From Rhodospirillaceae bacterium (GTDB taxonomy: Bacteria > Pseudomonadota > Alphaproteobacteria > GCA-2721365), in assembly GCA_002721365.1 (NCBI GenBank), contig PBKC01000073.1, forward strand, positions 27,225 through 91,224: a DNA stretch of 64,000 bases, read 5' to 3'. Below, piece by piece: positions 3 to 7,772 of this stretch (the first letter of the stretch is position 1; each line of letters starts with the position of its first letter). The notes below the pieces were generated by a model. That model made no database searches and was not told the origin of the DNA. It was given only the letters and a program-made list of their open reading frames with translations. The position numbers were made by a program, and so were the translations under genes.

Positions 3-1313
3 GGGACGGTCGCTGCATGGAACCCCGCCGCGGAGCGTCTGTTCGGCATCACGGCGGATGCGGCCCTGGGTGCCGACCTCCATACCTTGCTCAACGGAGC
101 CGGAGACCGCCTTGGCGATATGATCGCCGCGACAGGTCGGGGCGAGGCCTTCGAGCGGGAGGAAGTCGACCTTTCCCTGGGCAACGGGCGCCAACTCAGC
201 CTCTCGGTCAGTTTGGTTCCAGTCCGTGGCGGGAACGGTGCGCCGGAGAGTATGACCCTCATTGCCCAGGACCTGGCCGGCTACCAGGCCGCTCAGCGGA
301 CCGATGCGCTGTTGGCGGCGGTGGTTTCGTCCTCCGACGATGCCATCGTCAGCAAATCGCTCGAAGGCATTATCACCAGCTGGAATGCCGGTGCCGAAGC
401 CTTGCTGGGTTATACGGCCGAGGAGGTGATCGGCCGCCATATCTCGATGATCGCTCCGCCAGGGCGGAAGGACGAGATGCCGACCATTCTCGCGCGGATC
501 GCCGCCGGCAGCCGGGTCGACCATTTCGACACCCAGCGTCTCCGTAAGGATGGCCACCTCATCGACGTCTCGCTGACCGTATCGCCGATCCGGGACGGGA
601 CCGGACGCATCATCGGCGCGTCGAAGATCGCTCGCGACGTGACCGAGCGGAAGCGGAACGAGGCGCGGACGCGGCTGCTGCTCAGCGAACTCGACCACCG
701 GACCAAGAACATGCTGGCCATCGTGCAAAGCGTTCTGCGCCTGACCCAGGCCGACAACATCCGTGACTTCGTCTCGGTCGTCGAAGGACGGGTGCAGGCG
801 TTGGCCAGGGTTCACACCGAAATCGCGCACCATCGTTGGGATGGTGCCTATCTCGATTCTCTGCTGCGGATGAACGTTACGCGGGGCGTCTACCGGGATG
901 TCGAGATCAAAGGCGGGCCTACGGTTTTCCTTGGCCCGCAGGCAGCGGAAACGATCGGCATCGTTTTCTATGAACTCGCCACCAATGCAGCCCGCCACGG
1001 CGCCATGTCGATGAAGGGCGGCCGGGTCGAGGTCGACTGGGAGTTGACGGAGTCCCGAGACCTTATCCTCCGCTGGTTCGAACATGGCAGTCGCGGGTTG
1101 GATGGGCAGGCCCGGCGGGGGTTCGGCATGCGGGTGATCGAACGGCTGGTCCCCGAACAGATCCAGGGCGGCGCCCAAATCGACTGGATGGCGGATGGCC
1201 TGCAGTGCACGTTCACCATTCCAAGCGCTGCGCTCGCGCCGCCGCCTTCTCAGATACCCCCCGATCGCGAAGAAACCCTGTCGCCATCGCCCGCGCCGAA
1301 GGACTCGGGCTGA
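3..1313 (+). CDS. PAS-domain sensor histidine kinase, HWE/HisKA_2 type (5' end cut by window edge)
   Basis: Frame 3 is open from base 3 (GTVAAWNPAAERLFGI, PAS-like). A second PAS follows (IITSWNAGAEALLGYTAEEVIGRHISMI), then an HWE-type phosphoacceptor box (LLSELDHRTKNMLAIVQSVL) and an ATPase region (YELATNAARHGA). The listed ORF 87..1313 is the same frame. Confidence 0.9.
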   Translation, partial: GTVAAWNPAAERLFGITADAALGADLHTLLNGAGDRLGDMIAATGRGEAFEREEVDLSLGNGRQLSLSVSLVPVRGGNGAPESMTLIAQDLAGYQAAQRTDALLAAVVSSSDDAIVSKSLEGIITSWNAGAEALLGYTAEEVIGRHISMIAPPGRKDEMPTILARIAAGSRVDHFDTQRLRKDGHLIDVSLTVSPIRDGTGRIIGASKIARDVTERKRNEARTRLLLSELDHRTKNMLAIVQSVLRLTQADNIRDFVSVVEGRVQALARVHTEIAHHRWDGAYLDSLLRMNVTRGVYRDVEIKGGPTVFLGPQAAETIGIVFYELATNAARHGAMSMKGGRVEVDWELTESRDLILRWFEHGSRGLDGQARRGFGMRVIERLVPEQIQGGAQIDWMADGLQCTFTIPSAALAPPPSQIPPDREETLSPSPAPKDSG

Positions 1314-1419: not shown

Positions 1420-2034
1420 TCAGCGGCCGCCGCCGCCTCCACCGCCATGTCGCATCTTTGGGCCGCCGCCCGGACCGCCGGGCATCCGGCGCTGGAACGG
1501 GTCTTCGACACCTTGCTCCGTGGCCCGTTCGCGGACACGCGCGCGAAGCTCGGCCCGGATGCGATCCCGTTCTTCCATCGATTGCGCGTTCCGCATCCGG
1601 TCGCGGAACTGCAATCGTTCGCGCTCGGTCAGCAGATTGCCGCCCGGCATCGGATCGTCGGCGTTCCAGCCTCCCTGGCGCATGCCGGCAGCCGGCATTT
1701 CATCGGGTAGGGCGATGCCCTTTTGGCGGGCCCGTTCCTGCATGAGCCGGTGATGTTCCGTACGGATGCGTTCACGCTCTTCCAGGCTCTCGGCATCCCG
1801 CAGTCTGTCACGAAGCTGTTGGCGCTCCTCGTTGGTCATCATCTCGCTGCCGTAGATCCGATCGCGGTCCTGAATCTGGTCGCGGTCGCGATCCTGCAGG
1901 CGGTCCTGGTCTTGATCCCGGAGACGATCCTGATCCTGCTGGCGGTCGCGATCCTGATCCTGGGCCATGGCCGCCGGGGCGATCGCGGTTAGGGCGACCA
2001 GCGCGATCGCGGCCAACATCGTTGTCTTGCGCAT
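1420..2034 (-). CDS. Secreted repeat protein, ZraP/CpxP/Spy-like (LTXXQ-type helical repeats) with Gly-rich C-terminus
   Basis: ATG at 2034 preceded by GAGGAGA. Signal peptide MRKTTMLAAIALVALTAIAPAAMA. A DQ/DR repeat tract follows. There are two copies of a (M/L)TxEERxQxRDRxRxAxSxEERxRIRxE unit. The protein ends ...KMRHGGGGGGGR. Confidence 0.8.
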   Translation of the reverse strand: MRKTTMLAAIALVALTAIAPAAMAQDQDRDRQQDQDRLRDQDQDRLQDRDRDQIQDRDRIYGSEMMTNEERQQLRDRLRDAESLEERERIRTEHHRLMQERARQKGIALPDEMPAAGMRQGGWNADDPMPGGNLLTERERLQFRDRMRNAQSMEERDRIRAELRARVRERATEQGVEDPFQRRMPGGPGGGPKMRHGGGGGGGR

Positions 2035-2059
2035 CGTTCTCTCCTCGACTGGTGAGGGC

Positions 2060-2998
2060 CTACATCTCGTGGACGGTGTAGATGGCCTCCCGCACTGCTT
2101 CTGCGCCAGCCTGCACCTGATCGACCTGTGCTTCGGTCATCGCCGGCAGACCGAGGATGGCGTTGAGGGCGACGACCGTGTCGTCGGTTACCGGCATCGT
2201 CTTGTCCGATGCCGCACCGAGAAAGATCGCGGCCAGATCCTCGCGCGACGCAGGCGTGACACCCGAAAGCTCAGTGGTGCCGTCGGTGACGACTTCTTTG
2301 TAGAGGGCAAGGTTCTGAAGCGGCGAATCGATCCGGACCAGGTCAGGATGCGCCAACAGATAGGCGGCTGCCTCGGGGGCCGTCATCGAATACCAGTCGG
2401 CGGTATCGCCGTTCCAGCTGCTCAGAGCTTCTCCCAGCGCCTGATCCAGAACATGGGTCGGCGCTCGCGACACGTTCAGGCGGCCGAGCTCGACTTCAGG
2501 AATGCCTTCCTGCGCCCAGGCCGGGCGGCCACCTTGGCGGGTGTCGTCCGCATTGAAGTCCTGTTCTCCGCCGCCGCCGCGCCCGGCATGGCCGGCGCTG
2601 CCGCCCTTGCCGCCGTGATCGCTGCCGTCGGTATGGTCGTGATCCTCTGCTGTGTGATCCTCGCCATCGGCGTGATCTCCACCGCTACCGCCACGACCCT
2701 TGCCGCTGCTGCCATGCTCCGAGCCGTCTTCGTGGTCGTGGGTATCGCCATCGGTATGGTCGTGCGTCGTATCCGCACCCGCGCCGGCCGCATCCAGGTC
2801 ATGGCCTCCACCGCCATGGCCCCCTCCGCCGCCGCCATGACCGCCGCCGCCATGGCCACCGCCACCCCCGGCTCCGCCGCCCTGATGCTGCGCATAGGCG
2901 GTCGCAATACCGAACTCGCCCTGGGCGAGTTGGTTCAGCCCGACCGGAATCGCAGCGAGCGCGACGACGGCCGCTGAAGCCATGAGACGTGTCTTCAT
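2060..2998 (-). CDS. Secreted Gly/His/Asp-rich protein, paralogue A of an unrecognised family
   Basis: ATG at 2998. Signal peptide MKTRLMASAAVVALAAIPV...AYA. Low-complexity region with (G4-6H) repeats and a DH-rich tract (THDHTDGDTHDHEDGSEHG...DHTAEDHDHTDGSDHG). The C-terminal domain shares EVELGRLN, IDSPLQNLALY and FLGAASDK motifs with the 3145..4368 product. Confidence 0.85.
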   Translation of the reverse strand: MKTRLMASAAVVALAAIPVGLNQLAQGEFGIATAYAQHQGGGAGGGGGHGGGGHGGGGGGHGGGGHDLDAAGAGADTTHDHTDGDTHDHEDGSEHGSSGKGRGGSGGDHADGEDHTAEDHDHTDGSDHGGKGGSAGHAGRGGGGEQDFNADDTRQGGRPAWAQEGIPEVELGRLNVSRAPTHVLDQALGEALSSWNGDTADWYSMTAPEAAAYLLAHPDLVRIDSPLQNLALYKEVVTDGTTELSGVTPASREDLAAIFLGAASDKTMPVTDDTVVALNAILGLPAMTEAQVDQVQAGAEAVREAIYTVHEM

Positions 2999-3083
2999 GT
3001 CGAACTCTTCATTTCTTGAAGCCGGCGCGAGCCGCTATCGGTGTCGCGCGGCATGAACCCACCGGGATAGGGCTGGGGACGGG

Positions 3084-3108
3084 GCGGGAGCCGCAATGCG
3101 GCCCCCGC
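3084..3108 (-). other. GC-rich intercistronic stem-loop between paralogue B and paralogue A
   Basis: Plus strand GCGGGAGCCGC-AAT-GCGGCCCCCGC gives an 11-bp stem with one G-U pair on the minus-strand RNA. No U-run follows, so it is not a canonical terminator. It may be an mRNA processing or stability element. Confidence 0.3.
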
Positions 3109-3144
3109 TGATTAAACGCCCGTCTCAGGCCCGAAGGCTTGCCG

Positions 3145-4368
3145 TCAGTGCGAGCCTTCTTCGACAGACGTCGCCGGCACTTCGTACTCGTGGATGTAGT
3201 TCACCACGGCACGGGAGTCGTCCACCGCCTGCGCGAAGCCCGCGGCAGCGGTGGCAGAGACGTCCTCGCCACCGAAGACGGCGTCGAAGATATTGACCTC
3301 GGTCACCGTCCAGGTGCCGTCACCGTCCGGATCGACGAGCACCTCCGCGGTGACGTCGCCATAGGTGCTTTCGCGGTCGTAGCTCACGCTCGTCAGGTCG
3401 ATATAGCTGCCGGTCGACGGATCGTTCACGCCGAGGATGTTGTTGGTGTACATCACCTCATCCAGCGAAAGCGGCGTGTACTTGTCGGCCGCGGCACCCA
3501 ACAGCACCGCAGCGGAGATCAGATCCTCGGCGGTGAGCTGCCCGTCGGTCAGGTTCGAGAACGCGCTGCTGACGACCGGGTTGGTCAGGCCTTCGATCGT
3601 GCCGTCGTCGATCAGGTCGAGGTAGAGGCCCATGTTCTCCAGCGGGGAGTCGATGGTCTTCCACTCGCCGTCGACCAGGACCTCCAGCCGGCCGGCCGCG
3701 TCGGTGCGGACGTCGGTCGCCGCATTCAGCGTGGCAAGGGCCTCGTCCGTCGCCCGCTCGGTGACCATGTCCGGCGCGCGGCCCATGTTCAGACGGCCCA
3801 GTTCGACTTCCTGCGTCAAGGTCTCGTCGACCGGATGGCCTTCCTCGTCGAGCGGAATCAGCGAGCCGTCTTCGGCGATCGGCTGCGGATAGCCGTCGGG
3901 ATCTTCATAAGGCTCCGTCGTGCCGTTGCCGTCACGGTCTTCCCAGACATAAAGGACCGGTTCGCCATTGTCGTTCCGGACGATGACGTAAAGGTCGCCG
4001 TACAGGCTGCCGCGATCGGTCGACGGCTTGCCGCCGCCGCCAGGCTTCTCGGCACCGCGGCCCGCGTGGTCCGGCCGGTCGGAATCGGGATCGGGCGTGC
4101 CCGCGTCGGGGTTGCCGCTACCATGTTCGCCACCGCCGTGACCGCCACCGCCGTGGCCGCCACCGCCGCCGCCGGCACCGCCACCGTGGCCGCCACCGCC
4201 ACCACCTTGGCCCTGGCCACCACCGCCGCCACCGCCGTGGTCCTGCGCGAACGCCTTCGAGACGACGACGTTCACGCCGTCATGAGAAGAAAACCCAACA
4301 GGGGCAACAATGAAAGCCACTGCAGCTGCGCTGGACAGCAGTGTGTTTCGCAAAACAGACTGAGACAT
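3145..4368 (-). CDS. Secreted Gly/His-rich protein, paralogue B (longest; extra DxDxDG-like loops)
   Basis: The listed ORF 3145..4473 is trimmed to the ATG at 4368 (MSQSVLRNTLLSSAAAVAFIVAPV...), which is preceded by GAAGAGG. It contains (G6-7H) repeats and motifs EVELGRLNMGRAP, IDSPLENMGLY and LLGAAADK. The insert and C-terminal extension carry EDRDGNGT and DPDGDGT loops. Confidence 0.85.
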   Translation of the reverse strand: MSQSVLRNTLLSSAAAVAFIVAPVGFSSHDGVNVVVSKAFAQDHGGGGGGGQGQGGGGGGHGGGAGGGGGGHGGGGHGGGEHGSGNPDAGTPDPDSDRPDHAGRGAEKPGGGGKPSTDRGSLYGDLYVIVRNDNGEPVLYVWEDRDGNGTTEPYEDPDGYPQPIAEDGSLIPLDEEGHPVDETLTQEVELGRLNMGRAPDMVTERATDEALATLNAATDVRTDAAGRLEVLVDGEWKTIDSPLENMGLYLDLIDDGTIEGLTNPVVSSAFSNLTDGQLTAEDLISAAVLLGAAADKYTPLSLDEVMYTNNILGVNDPSTGSYIDLTSVSYDRESTYGDVTAEVLVDPDGDGTWTVTEVNIFDAVFGGEDVSATAAAGFAQAVDDSRAVVNYIHEYEVPATSVEEGSH

Positions 4369-4490
4369 TACTGCAACCTCTTCTTTGTATGTGTTTCCCG
4401 CACAATGGCCAGATTTCTGGTTCATCTTATAATTTTGATGAAGGATGTCCTTTATCCAGATTAAACTGGCCAAGATATTCGTGTATTCGG

Positions 4491-4946
4491 TCAGCGACGA
4501 TAGATTTTATTCTCGATGTTCCAGCCGCCGCTGGGGCAAACGAAATCCTCGCCGCCAGCGCCACCACCGGTGATTCCGCTGGTGGTATAGGCGCCGCCGA
4601 CATCGGGTTCGATGACATCGACCCGATCGCCGCCACCCGGGCCGCCGCCCTGTCCGCCACCGGCGCGACCCGGCCCGAAACCGCCACGGCCGCTGCCGTC
4701 CTGGAAGGGGCATGCCGGATTGGCGCCCTTGTGCTGGCCACCGCCATGACCGCCGCCTCCATGGCCGCCGCCGCAACCGCCGCCGCCACAACCACCGCCG
4801 CCGGCGTGATCGCCGTCGTCATGGCCCTGGGCCAAGGCCTGGGCGCCAAAATGAAGTCCTTCTGCAGACTGATGGATGGGCATGGCGAAGACCGCGATGG
4901 TCGCCACGCCGACGAGAAGACTCAGCGCCTTCTTGCGAAAGCTCAT
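4491..4946 (-). CDS. Small secreted Gly/His/Cys-rich protein
   Basis: The listed ORF 4491..5120 is trimmed to the ATG at 4946, preceded by AGGAGA. Signal peptide MSFRKKALSLLVGVATIAVFAMP. Sequence includes GHDDGDHAGGGGCGGGGCGGGHGGGGHGGGQH, then PACPF and FVCPSGGW (4 Cys in total). Confidence 0.75.
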   Translation of the reverse strand: MSFRKKALSLLVGVATIAVFAMPIHQSAEGLHFGAQALAQGHDDGDHAGGGGCGGGGCGGGHGGGGHGGGQHKGANPACPFQDGSGRGGFGPGRAGGGQGGGPGGGDRVDVIEPDVGGAYTTSGITGGGAGGEDFVCPSGGWNIENKIYRR

Positions 4947-4980
4947 ATCCGTGTTCTCCTGTTCGACTGTGGTTGTGCCG

Positions 4981-5754
4981 TCAGCGCCGGCCCGCCTGAA
5001 CGATCCGGGCCTGGTCCGCGATGGCATTCGCCTGCTGCTCGCTCGTGGTGACGCAGAGAACGGTGTTGACCGTGTCGATAACGTCAGTGGAAACCGGGCG
5101 CGTGGCGATGATGCCGACATATGTGCCTGCGGTTGCTGTATCGACCGCGGACTGTTCCAAGGCTTCCTGATAGTTCGCCAGGATGTAGATCGGCGAACGG
5201 AAGCTCTCTGGGCTGAATTCTGGTGCGAGATAGACCTGGGCGATGTTCAGCCGCTCGAGATTTCTGCCGGACAGCCGCCGGTTCGGCGACATCTGAGCCG
5301 GGTCGTAATCGGCGCAACGGTCGCCACGTCCGAGCAGCAGATCCTCGCCGCCGATGCCGCCGCCGACCGACTCGAGGAACGTCGAATCGGATGCGAGGTC
5401 TTCGTCGTCACCGGGAGGGGGCGCCGGTGGCTCGTCGCTCTCGGCGCCGCCGAACCGGTTCTGGTTGACGCCGCCGGGGCCTGTCGAGTTGCCTTGTCCG
5501 CCTGAGTTGTCGCCGGCGCCGGCATTGGTGCCGCCAGCACCGTGGCTGGAACTGCTCGGACCAGCCGTGCCGCTGGTCGCGGTTCCGCCTGATCCTTCCG
5601 TGGCACCTGCCCGGTTCTGGTTATTCTGGGCATAGGCCGGTTTGCCGAGCGCAGAGTAGGTGGCGAAACCGCCTGGATCGTCGGGTAGGGAGGCAAAGCC
5701 GAAAGCCATTACGGCGACTGCTCCCCCCGAGAGCAGTTTGTTCCAGCTCTTCAT
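4981..5754 (-). CDS. Secreted Gly/Ser/Asn-rich protein, divergent paralogue C
   Basis: ATG at 5754 preceded by GAGGAGGAAAA. Signal peptide MKSWNKLLSGGAVAVMAFGFASL. The C-terminal part aligns by eye with paralogues A and B: RNLERLNIAQ vs EVELGRLNVS, PIYILANYQEAL vs SPLQNLALYKEV, and TYVGIIATRPVSTDVIDTVNTVL vs AIFLGAASDKTMPVTDDTVVALNAIL. Confidence 0.8.
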   Translation of the reverse strand: MKSWNKLLSGGAVAVMAFGFASLPDDPGGFATYSALGKPAYAQNNQNRAGATEGSGGTATSGTAGPSSSSHGAGGTNAGAGDNSGGQGNSTGPGGVNQNRFGGAESDEPPAPPPGDDEDLASDSTFLESVGGGIGGEDLLLGRGDRCADYDPAQMSPNRRLSGRNLERLNIAQVYLAPEFSPESFRSPIYILANYQEALEQSAVDTATAGTYVGIIATRPVSTDVIDTVNTVLCVTTSEQQANAIADQARIVQAGRR

Positions 5755-6134
5755 GTTCGGTTTTCCTCCTCTGCGACGTCTTCAGTTACCGTGTTCTGAT
5801 AGGGTAAGAGCGGATTCCCAGAAACAAACTGGATCAAATGGCCGCGTCAAATTTCACAGTCAGAATTTGCGAATGTGCGCATAGAAGCATCTAGCGGTCG
5901 CTCCAAGTGCCTGCGACACGGGAATTCAGGAGCGGGAAACGACGACACAACGTTGGTGCGCCAAGTGGTGCCCGCAGCCGGAAGCATCCCTCCGCAGCCG
6001 CGCACCGCGATAATCGTTAAAGCCAGTCTTGCAGACCGCATGCGCCGCAAGACGCAGCAAAAGTTTAATGCAGTTTCCGATCCGATCGTTCCATCTGCTG
6101 ATGTTTCAAGCGGATATGGAGCGCGCGAGGACTG

Positions 6135-7772
6135 CTAGTATTGAACGCCGAAACGTATAAAGATCTGGTTTCGTACGTAGTCGGCGGCGGAATTTTCCGA
6201 ATCGCGCTTCTGATAGCGGTAGTCGGCGCCGACGAAATAGTTGCTGTTGATCAGATAGCGGATGCCACCGCCAAGGCTGGTCTCACGATCGGTCCGAGTG
6301 CTGCTCTCGAAATCGCTTTCCGCGTAGGAGGCACGGAGGGTCGCGAACAGGTTGCGAATGATCTGATATTCGACTTCCGCTCCATAGGAGCTGAGGACGT
6401 AGCCCGGCGAGCCGATCAACGTGGTTTCCTCGATCGTCCGGTCCGTCCACCCCGAAAGAACGGTCGACGGGATGGGACGCCAGTAGACGCTGCCGCTGAA
6501 GGCCATCTCACTGAAATCTTCCAGCAGAATGTCGTCGTAATCCCGACGCATGTAGCCGACGGCCGCTTCCGCGCTCAACTTGCCGGTGATCCGCGCCGTC
6601 ATGCCGCTCATGACGCGGACGCCCGTCGAGTCACGGTCGAACCCGAAATCGTCGACGGCCGTATCGTAGGTGCGGATGTCGACGGTGCCCTGGACGAAGG
6701 GCTGGATAACGTCGGTAAGGGCGTAGCTCAGCCGGCCACCGACGGAATATCGGGTCCGGTCACGGTCGTCGTTGTTGAAGACGACCGCCGCGGCCGGGGT
6801 GTCGTCGAAATCCAGCCGGTCGACGTCGATGCCGCCCCTGACCGAAATCCCGGCAAAGGCATGGTAGGCACCGAGATAGGCGGTGGTATTCCGGTAGATC
6901 GTTGGTTCCAGCCCGTTGACGTCGTCGGGCGAATCGCGGTCTTCGTGGTCGCGTCCGTAGGCGAGCCCGCCGAAGACCTCGGTATCGTCGTCGATATCGT
7001 ATCGACCTTCACCGCTGAGGTCGTAGTCGATCGAGTTCTCGGAGGAGAAGTCTTCGTAGCGGACGACGTCCGTACCGACCTCGAAATTCAGCGCGTGCTT
7101 GTCCCAATCCGAGTTCAGGTAAAGCGTCGGCGCGAACACGGCGACGCGGTCGATCCTTTCGTTGGTCGGCGTCGCGAAGATGTTGTCGTCCCAGTAACCG
7201 GCGACCAGCAGTTCCGGGTAGAGCACGAACGATCCCACATCGTATCCGAGAGTGCGCTGCCGACGTACCTGCGGGGGCTGCTGCGAATCGCCGAGGGCGC
7301 CCGTCGCGCCGGTGGTGGCCGGTGCGCCTTCCTCAGCCCCTTCGCTGACCCGGGCGGACGGCAGGCTTGGTGGCGGCTCCAGCGCCACAACAGCACTTAC
7401 GGCCCGCGTGGCGGCTTCCGCGACCGCCGCCCGGACCGCCGGCGGTGCCGCATCCGCGATGCGGGCGACGATGGACCGATAGACGGGAAGGTTGTTGCCG
7501 CGGAACGTCAGGACCGGCCGCGCGGCGGCATCCGCCAAGGAAGCGGCGCTATCGGGGGTGCCGACAAGCGCCGGATTGGCGGAGATCGCTGCATCCAACG
7601 CGTTCAGCAGGGCTGCGGGGCCTTCGCTCGCCGCATCCGACAACTGGGTCGCGACCGATTCCGAAACAGGGGCGGCCATGACCGGCAGGGCGCCCACTAG
7701 TCCCAGAGAAAGGATCGCTGCTCCAAATGTCGATATTGCCCGCGCTTTAGTCGTTCCGATGCTCGATCCCAC
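6135..7772 (-). CDS. Outer-membrane beta-barrel protein (BBP2/DUF2320-like)
   Basis: GTG start at 7772 with AAGGTGG upstream. Signal peptide ...AILSLGLVGALPVMAAP, followed by an Ala-rich linker. Alternating-residue beta-strand pattern from YDVGSFVLYPELLVAGYWDDNIFAT onward. C-terminus ...IFIRFGVQY is an aromatic terminal residue typical of OMPs. Confidence 0.85.
   Translation of the reverse strand: MGSSIGTTKARAISTFGAAILSLGLVGALPVMAAPVSESVATQLSDAASEGPAALLNALDAAISANPALVGTPDSAASLADAAARPVLTFRGNNLPVYRSIVARIADAAPPAVRAAVAEAATRAVSAVVALEPPPSLPSARVSEGAEEGAPATTGATGALGDSQQPPQVRRQRTLGYDVGSFVLYPELLVAGYWDDNIFATPTNERIDRVAVFAPTLYLNSDWDKHALNFEVGTDVVRYEDFSSENSIDYDLSGEGRYDIDDDTEVFGGLAYGRDHEDRDSPDDVNGLEPTIYRNTTAYLGAYHAFAGISVRGGIDVDRLDFDDTPAAAVVFNNDDRDRTRYSVGGRLSYALTDVIQPFVQGTVDIRTYDTAVDDFGFDRDSTGVRVMSGMTARITGKLSAEAAVGYMRRDYDDILLEDFSEMAFSGSVYWRPIPSTVLSGWTDRTIEETTLIGSPGYVLSSYGAEVEYQIIRNLFATLRASYAESDFESSTRTDRETSLGGGIRYLINSNYFVGADYRYQKRDSENSAADYVRNQIFIRFGVQY

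Follow-up and report, generated by a model that had tools for sequence, protein, structure and literature searches.

We analyzed a 64,000-nucleotide stretch of contig PBKC01000073.1 (positions 27,225 to 91,224) from the metagenome-assembled genome (MAG) of a Rhodospirillaceae bacterium; we refer to this whole stretch as the window. At 1420-7772 of the window, the list of open reading frames (ORFs) has six consecutive genes on the minus strand, in the order barrel, C, D, B, A, and E. The first gene encodes an outer-membrane beta-barrel protein of the BBP2_2 family. The products of A, B, and C share a common plan: a signal peptide, then a glycine-rich disordered linker of about 80-125 residues, and then an ordered C-terminal domain. 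An initial annotation of this locus proposed that these three are paralogues whose C-terminal domain belongs to no known family, and our results bear this out. As judged from their sequences, A, B, and C diverged long ago within an uncharacterized superfamily of Sec-exported cell-envelope proteins. All three ORFs lie where that annotation had placed them, on the minus strand, and every motif that it quoted is found in the translations.

2060-2998, minus strand: gene A, the short "A-type" paralogue, 312 amino acids (aa); called from the ORF and a ribosome-binding site (RBS)
Parts of A, minus strand: signal peptide, about 2891-2998; Gly/His/Asp-rich disordered linker, about 2519-2890; all-alpha domain, 2063-2518
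3145-4368, minus strand: gene B, the long "B-type" paralogue, 407 aa; called from the ORF
Parts of B, minus strand: signal peptide, about 4246-4368; Gly-rich linker, about 4012-4245; ordered region, 3148-4011
3424-3810, minus strand: core common to B and A, from EVELGRLNMGRAP to NNILGVN (E = 2.6e-35 by hhalign; translation checked)
4981-5754, minus strand: gene C, the divergent paralogue, 257 aa; called from the ORF and a strong RBS
Parts of C, minus strand: signal peptide, about 5629-5754; Gly/Ser/Thr/Pro-rich linker; domain bracketed by cysteines, about 4984-5334
4984-5244, minus strand: part of C that is homologous to A (hhalign against the A family)

Shine-Dalgarno-like sequences are present upstream of C, D, B, A, and E (6-10 nucleotides upstream for A, B, and C). 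The G+C content at third codon positions is 0.70-0.80 across the six genes of the cluster (0.72-0.80 for A, B, and C) and resembles that of the neighboring known genes. Read from the translations, C, D, B, A, and E each start with a signal peptide that ends in A-x-A and is followed by Q. At 36-42 residues, the signal peptides of A-D are of unusual length; in them, the hydrophobic core is separated from the A-x-A/Q site by a further 15-20 residues that form a second segment, and the predicted cleavage site is uncertain.

In the MAG record, A, B, and C are CMM50_13450, CMM50_13455, and CMM50_13465, and all three are annotated as "hypothetical protein." B is recorded in GenBank as a protein of 224 aa (MBL28547.1), which is 183 residues too short: the RBS, the signal peptide, and the family alignment and hidden Markov model (HMM) support a product of 407 aa from a start at 4368. 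Long ORFs (336-519 aa) also lie on the plus strand opposite A (1967-2977), B (3139-4464), and the barrel gene (6141-7700). These are shadow ORFs of the kind expected at 65% G+C, not genes.

The linkers of all three families are 23-32% glycine. The median histidine content is 9.2% in the A family, 2.2% in the B family, and 1.3% in the C family, and B-family linkers are rich in aspartate. The linker of A in the window has 47 glycines, 16 histidines, and 18 aspartates among its 124 aa.

Homology among the three proteins

A and B are similar by BLASTP (E = 2e-13, about 33% identity) when the ordered domain is used alone and the Gly-rich part is left out. An HMM of 48 B-type relatives matches A with a domain E value of 1e-21, and a profile-profile comparison of the two families with hhalign gives a probability of 99.9% (E = 2.6e-35).

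C is far more distant. Pairwise BLASTP was not significant for A and C (E = 0.56) and found no match between B and C, the B-family HMM scored -3.3 bits on the C-terminus of C, and a word-seeded homology search with the C-terminus of C returned no relatives. The last result was a failure of sensitivity, as became clear when an exhaustive phmmer search with C found 113 representative clusters at E ≤ 1e-3. C also has a syntenic orthologue (44% identity, E = 2e-22 by tblastn). When a profile of 67 C-type proteins was compared to the A-type profile by hhalign, the probability was 97.7% (E = 1.9e-12 over 87 columns), and it was 96.6% (E = 5e-10) after both profiles were trimmed to the ordered domains. 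As controls for the trimmed comparison, we compared one reversed and 20 column-shuffled C profiles to the same A profile; the best of them reached E = 0.034. Against the B-family profile, the C-family profile gave marginal matches only (E = 4e-4 to 2e-3). Also, a relative named P0249 has two tandem domains, one of them A/C-like and the other a C domain. C is thus a genuine but distant member of the superfamily, and its homology can be seen at the profile level only and by way of A.

The initial annotation had argued that the similarity is more than low complexity, and it does persist once the Gly-rich regions are removed, both between A and B and between C and A. The motifs of C that had been paired by eye with those of the other proteins fared less evenly. 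The profile alignment reproduces the second pairing (LANYQEAL with LALYKEVV) and the third (TYVGIIATRPVSTDVIDTVNTVL with AIFLGAASDKTMPVTDDTVVALNAILGL). It does not support the first (RNLERLNIAQ with EVELGRLNV); instead, IAQVYLAPEF of C aligns about 40 residues further along A.

We found 731 A-type homologues and at least 662 B-type homologues of about 400 aa, in addition to the 113 representative relatives of C. The A-type homologues that were listed are 243-284 aa long, 52-62% identical to A, and unnamed or "hypothetical." The three genes had been described as a local triplication, but the triplication is not recent: A is 52-62% identical to its listed relatives elsewhere and about 33% identical to B. 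Because A, B, and C each have a large orthologous family of their own, and because A and B are only about 33% identical, the duplications long predate this genome. On this sequence evidence, A, B, and C are ancient paralogues inside a conserved operon.

Relatives of B are present in 288 of the 185,579 species-representative genomes that we scanned. Most of these genomes are from Rhodobacterales, Sphingomonadales, Caulobacterales, Rhodospirillales, or Hyphomicrobiales, and a few are from Gammaproteobacteria or are Nitrospirota MAGs. Outside the Alphaproteobacteria, the barrel occurs with B, and sometimes with A, in the Nitrospirota MAGs L075 and L082 and the Gammaproteobacteria L037 and L074, which could be due to horizontal transfer or to a binning error. 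Named homologues are all "hypothetical protein," with the exception of a B-type homologue (P0073) to which UniProt automatically assigned the label "SLH domain-containing protein."

Fold and conserved residues

We searched Pfam-A (2025 copy), NCBIfam (June 2026), PDB, and BFVD for known families and folds. A profile search could have placed the motifs in an already annotated Pfam domain, as the initial annotation allowed, and it did not: A, B, and C had no match in Pfam-A even at E ≤ 10. In NCBIfam, they had noise matches only (E ≥ 0.11, with 9-13 bits versus cutoffs of 255-420). When the members of the families were compared to Pfam-A and NCBIfam, the 48 B-type proteins gave a subthreshold chance match only, and the matches of the 113 C-type proteins were limited to fusion partners. 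Sequence-profile searches of PDB with all three family profiles returned glycine-linker noise (E ≥ 0.037).

The shared domain is compact, all-alpha, and about 90-130 residues long. AlphaFold2 modeled the domain of A as seven helices (predicted local distance difference test [pLDDT] of 88.4, predicted template modeling score [pTM] of 0.79). The ordered region of B was modeled at a similar level (pLDDT 87.8, pTM 0.74). It has the helical core of A; the additions are beta-hairpins at the N-terminus, a meander of three strands, and a beta-sheet module that is inserted before the closing helix. When we compared these models to PDB with Foldseek, the B model reached an E value of 0.41 at best and the A model one of 1.1, TM scores were 0.29 or less, and the best match of the B model in BFVD (E = 0.29) was not usable. 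Going by these confident models, the ordered domain has a new fold, solely in the sense that nothing in PDB or BFVD matches it.

We also considered a relationship to SLH domains, which was suggested by the UniProt label on P0073 and by the resemblance, by eye, of DKTxPVTxDxVxAxNxILGL to the SLH helix ITRAExAxxLxRALGL. The searches gave no support for this: PF00395 was not matched by P0073, A, or B at E ≤ 10, and no SLH structure was among the 50 best Foldseek matches listed. Similarly, Pfam did not identify the OmpA-like peptidoglycan-binding domain (PF00691) in A, B, or C from the window. A literature search on the BBP2_2 family and on His/Gly-rich periplasmic proteins found nothing about these proteins.

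The most conserved segment of the domain is EVELGRLNVxRAP, in which E, L, G, R, V, R, and P are invariant in the A family. This segment is also the lowest-confidence part of both models, with pLDDT values of 50-58 in A and 59-76 in B. A segment that is conserved yet poorly modeled is a common pattern where the segment folds on a partner. The A and B families have invariant polar residues in common, including R23, R28, S75, N79, D115, K116, R153, and H160 (in the numbering of A). In the C family, two invariant cysteines bracket the domain, as would fit a disulfide formed in the periplasm. The isoelectric points are about 4.1-4.2 for the ordered domains of A and B. It had been suggested that the three domains be checked for conserved metal-ligand positions, and no set of ligands is kept across all of them.

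The initial annotation also pointed out that B contains two loops that resemble DxDxDG calcium-binding loops, which are EF-hand-like:

3919-3942, minus strand: EDRDGNGT, a DxDxDG-like loop in a beta-hairpin insertion (from the translation)
3313-3333, minus strand: DPDGDGT loop (from the translation)

Both motifs are present, and B matches the pattern D-x-[DN]-x-[DN]-G at each of them: D-R-D-G-N-G lies in the hairpin loop and D-P-D-G-D-G in the second loop. However, they are not a feature of the domain. Of 48 B-type relatives, 10 have the insertion with the first loop, which reads W[ED]D[RTQ]D[GN][DN]G (clade pattern, D-x-D-[GN]-[DN]-G). For the second loop, only the D-G pair is found family-wide: most relatives have QQPDGSW, and the DPDGDGT form is confined to roughly the ten closest. 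The two loops are not distributed across the same set of sequences, neither of them is present in A or C, and they are not conserved as a family-wide site. The loops are thus lineage-specific additions outside the shared core, and they may bind calcium in this lineage.

The barrel and its neighbors

The other three genes of the cluster are as follows:

6135-7772, minus strand: BBP2_2 outer-membrane beta-barrel gene (PF10082), 545 aa; first gene of the cluster
4491-4946, minus strand: gene D, a small exported Gly/His/Cys-rich protein of 151 aa, with a signal peptide at 4836-4946; called from the ORF and an RBS
1420-2034, minus strand: gene E, an exported protein of 204 aa; last gene of the cluster; called from the ORF and an RBS

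The barrel protein is a clear member of PF10082 (338.8 bits versus a cutoff of 23.7, E = 5e-101, covering model positions 5-378 of 378). To describe the neighborhood, we clustered the ORFs of 85 nonredundant loci (the fetched loci plus the window) by all-against-all comparison. A homologous barrel adjoins relatives of A or B in 68 of the 85 loci and is the sole widely conserved neighbor. Of 78 such neighboring barrel copies, 73 are on the same strand, usually immediately upstream. Loci with an A-type gene mostly have a short barrel of 430-545 aa, as in the window. In loci that have B only, the barrel protein measures about 810 aa and contains, in series, a BBP2_2, an OmpA-membrane-like, and an OMP_b-brl segment (for instance, L001 5464-7887, L002 5444-7903, and L003 5326-7761); it must be one barrel of unusual size or else several barrels fused together.

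The whole set of C, D, B, A, and E with the barrel is also found in L073. Other loci contain subsets: barrel, C, D, and A in L084 and L085; barrel, B, and A in L086 and L087; and A, a C-OmpA fusion, and E in L088, which is from a lower-GC organism. Given this recurrence across loci, D and E are conserved members of the cluster. Among the conserved neighbors in the 85-locus clustering, there is no metal transporter and no metal-responsive regulator.

D has a conserved C-terminal motif ending in FVCPSGGWNIENKIYRR (FVCxxxGxWxxxxKIxRR), and neither Pfam-A nor NCBIfam gave a credible match for it. D has counterparts at the same position in L073, L084, and L085, and of these only the one in L085 is significant by BLASTP (E = 3.5e-10; E = 8.8 for L084). 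D is probably unannotated in the MAG record, as a look-up gave no NCBI protein name. E has a tract of DQDR repeats, followed by two copies of a helical unit, MTxEERxxxRDRxRxAxSxEERxRIR (E = 1e-13 for repeat 1 versus repeat 2). This unit resembles the LTXXQ motif of CpxP and Spy. E scores 12.3 bits against the CpxP model of NCBIfam (E = 0.12, cutoff of 160) and does not match LTXXQ in Pfam. Orthologues of E adjoin relatives of A, B, or C in L003, L073, and L088 (E = 1e-17 to 1e-19), and E-like genes are neighbors in seven of the clustered loci.

Several other features of the neighborhood were seen. The second most frequent neighbor, seen in 16 loci (such as L002 9326-9919), lies 3' of the B-type gene and on its strand; it belongs to a family of lipoprotein-like proteins of about 200 aa that match nothing in Pfam. 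In two genomes, tandem duplicates of the B-type gene follow the barrel gene (L003 8001-10437, which is the same as L008 6626-9095, and L057 6578-9284). In one lineage, genes for an MtrB/PioB-type barrel and for multiheme cytochromes are directly upstream of BBP2_2, B, and A (L086 1196-4399 and L087 423-2993). On the flanks of the cluster in the window are genes for an HWE histidine kinase, a LysR regulator, a glycine-betaine ABC transporter, and TrkH, which are unrelated housekeeping genes; the LysR family is found in only 5 of the clustered loci, so we treat it as a coincidence. Between gene E and the convergent HWE kinase gene (87-1313, plus strand), a hairpin with a 13-bp stem at 1374-1406 is probably a bidirectional terminator that closes the cluster. 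Promoter and terminator scans gave nothing else that was informative.

Possible roles in the envelope

Two members of the C family have an OmpA peptidoglycan-binding domain at the C-terminus (E = 1e-17 to 1e-18), and another has a long, TonB-like, proline-rich PPVV spacer. These relatives, together with the invariant cysteine pair of C, point tentatively to the periplasm rather than the cell surface, and A, B, and C would all reside there. The reading that we favor, with a probability of about 50%, is that A, B, and C work in the periplasm as partners of the BBP2_2 barrel and are tethered by their linkers. They share an operon with the barrel, with D, and with E, a Spy/CpxP-like helical protein. 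The helical domains would remain periplasmic and dock on the barrel or on its periplasmic N-terminal region, with the E-V-E-L-G-R-L-N-V-x-R-A-P segment as a candidate docking peptide. The flexible Gly-rich linkers would span or probe the periplasm, so that together the proteins make up a complex of the envelope that is attached to the outer membrane. Clusters of His with Asp or Glu in the linkers of the A and D subfamilies are candidates for chelating divalent metal ions.

Several observations weigh against this reading, in which the interaction of A-C with the barrel is inferred. Of the 85 B-type loci, 22 (mostly from Rhodobacterales) lack a barrel within 7 kb, and OmpA fusions are found in only 2 of the 113 C-family representatives. 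The three domains do not have a metal-ligand set in common, the D-K and D-S-P motifs that A and B share are missing from C, and the linkers of B and C are not enriched in histidine. Finally, long disordered regions next to a barrel fit secretion through that barrel equally well.

Among known systems, close counterparts are the proteins that tether the outer membrane to peptidoglycan, such as those with OmpA or Pal C-terminal domains and the SLH porins (such as OmpM). These also join a barrel to a small domain in the periplasm by way of a flexible linker; in addition, two C relatives carry an OmpA domain, and one B-type homologue bears the SLH label. However, two different polypeptides supply the barrel and the helical domain here, the proteins in the window have no OmpA or SLH match in Pfam, and neither SLH nor OmpA structures were among the Foldseek matches of the A and B models. 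A bolder version is that the cluster is an unrecognized and widespread envelope machine of the Alphaproteobacteria: a barrel plus a new all-alpha fold on Gly-rich tethers that may be threaded through the barrel or anchored to it. The machine would either link the outer membrane with the cell wall or capture metal with His-rich "fishing lines." We hold this version only tentatively and consider it doubtful.

Alternatively, the barrel might be a dedicated outer-membrane translocon, with A-D as cargo that is exported largely unfolded and that builds a surface layer, a matrix, or fibers. In the csg and fap operons, too, an outer-membrane channel is paired with several Sec-dependent, paralogous proteins of low complexity (CsgG with CsgA and CsgB in curli; FapF with FapB, FapC, and FapE), and the gene order here, with the barrel first, is similar. 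Also, long Gly-rich disordered regions could pass through a narrow pore. However, the barrel here is of the BBP2_2 family, A-E have no Pfam matches to curlin or to Fap subunits, and amyloid repeats are absent. The ordered domains were instead modeled confidently as helical bundles, and the presumed substrates would have folded domains and, in C, a probable disulfide. The invariant cysteine pair of C argues for residence in the periplasm, as do the C relatives with the OmpA domain or the proline spacer.

Slam (type XI) secretion also has a barrel gene (DUF560) directly before a presumed client gene, and the BBP2_2 proteins weakly match its barrel family, SlipAM (PF04575), below threshold (E = 1e-4 to 0.056). 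With a cutoff of 22 bits, the window barrel scores 13.4 and that of L001 scores 17.4. Only the relative from Peiella (L003) reaches the cutoff, with 22.4 bits, but it scores 246 bits for BBP2_2. Furthermore, A-C are not lipoproteins and lack the 8-stranded barrel domain of Slam cargo; in our models, the client domains are helical. EpsL, a characterized BBP2_2 protein, carries PF10082 and sits in exopolysaccharide export clusters (PMC6037834), which might also suggest a role in export. The window barrel differs in that it matches the EpsL and TIGR03016 models far below their cutoffs and has no polysaccharide-synthesis or PEP-CTERM/exosortase genes beside it, and A, B, and C are not barrels themselves. 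Overall, we consider secretion through the barrel to be unlikely.

Another proposal is that the proteins buffer or take up metals in the periplasm. The linkers of A and D and the very acidic domains would sequester zinc, nickel, copper, or calcium; the barrel would be a porin; and E would be a metallochaperone like ZraP or CpxP. This would account for the many histidines and aspartates in the linker of A and the high histidine content of its family, for the GH[DE] repeats in D-like and some C-like proteins, for the low isoelectric points, and for the DxDxDG-type loops in a subclade of B. As in His-rich periplasmic metal binders and LTXXQ chaperones (ZraP, CpxP, and Spy), the Gly tracts of A and D are rich in His and Asp, and E has paired helices with an LTXXQ-like motif and a weak match to CpxP. 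However, that match is far below threshold, no significant match to any such family was found, and the richness in histidine is limited to two subfamilies, which do not include B and C. The DxDxDG loops are lineage specific, no ligand constellation is common to the three domains, and neither transporters nor regulators of metals are conserved neighbors. We consider metal buffering as the main role of the cluster to be unlikely; metal binding by some of the linkers is part of the reading that we favor, and we infer it from their composition.

It is very improbable that the domain is a cell-wall or envelope enzyme that uses the polar residues of A and B (D-S-P...N, D-K, R, and a C-terminal His). 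These residues are invariant in both families, but they are not kept in the homologous C family, and we found no likeness in fold or sequence to any hydrolase or transferase. The weakest alternative, that the similarity is a low-complexity artifact and that C is unrelated or a spurious ORF, drew on the failed pairwise and word-seeded comparisons of C and is refuted: the similarity of A and B is wholly within the ordered region, C has its own family and a syntenic orthologue, the domain-only profile match (E = 5e-10) is far beyond all 21 controls (E ≥ 0.034), and P0249 joins the two kinds of domain.

These genes represent an unassigned domain superfamily in a conserved and unstudied envelope gene cluster, with relatives in common marine and soil Alphaproteobacteria. 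If A-C are indeed partners of the barrel, then they would provide the first functional context for BBP2_2, which is a large outer-membrane family that has none outside of exopolysaccharide clusters, as well as a new protein fold and a testable case of disordered Gly-rich tethers at work in the periplasm. If the cluster is an envelope machine, then its mechanism would have no characterized counterpart. At a minimum, the A, B, and C families merit curated domain models, so that their members are no longer annotated as unrelated hypothetical proteins.

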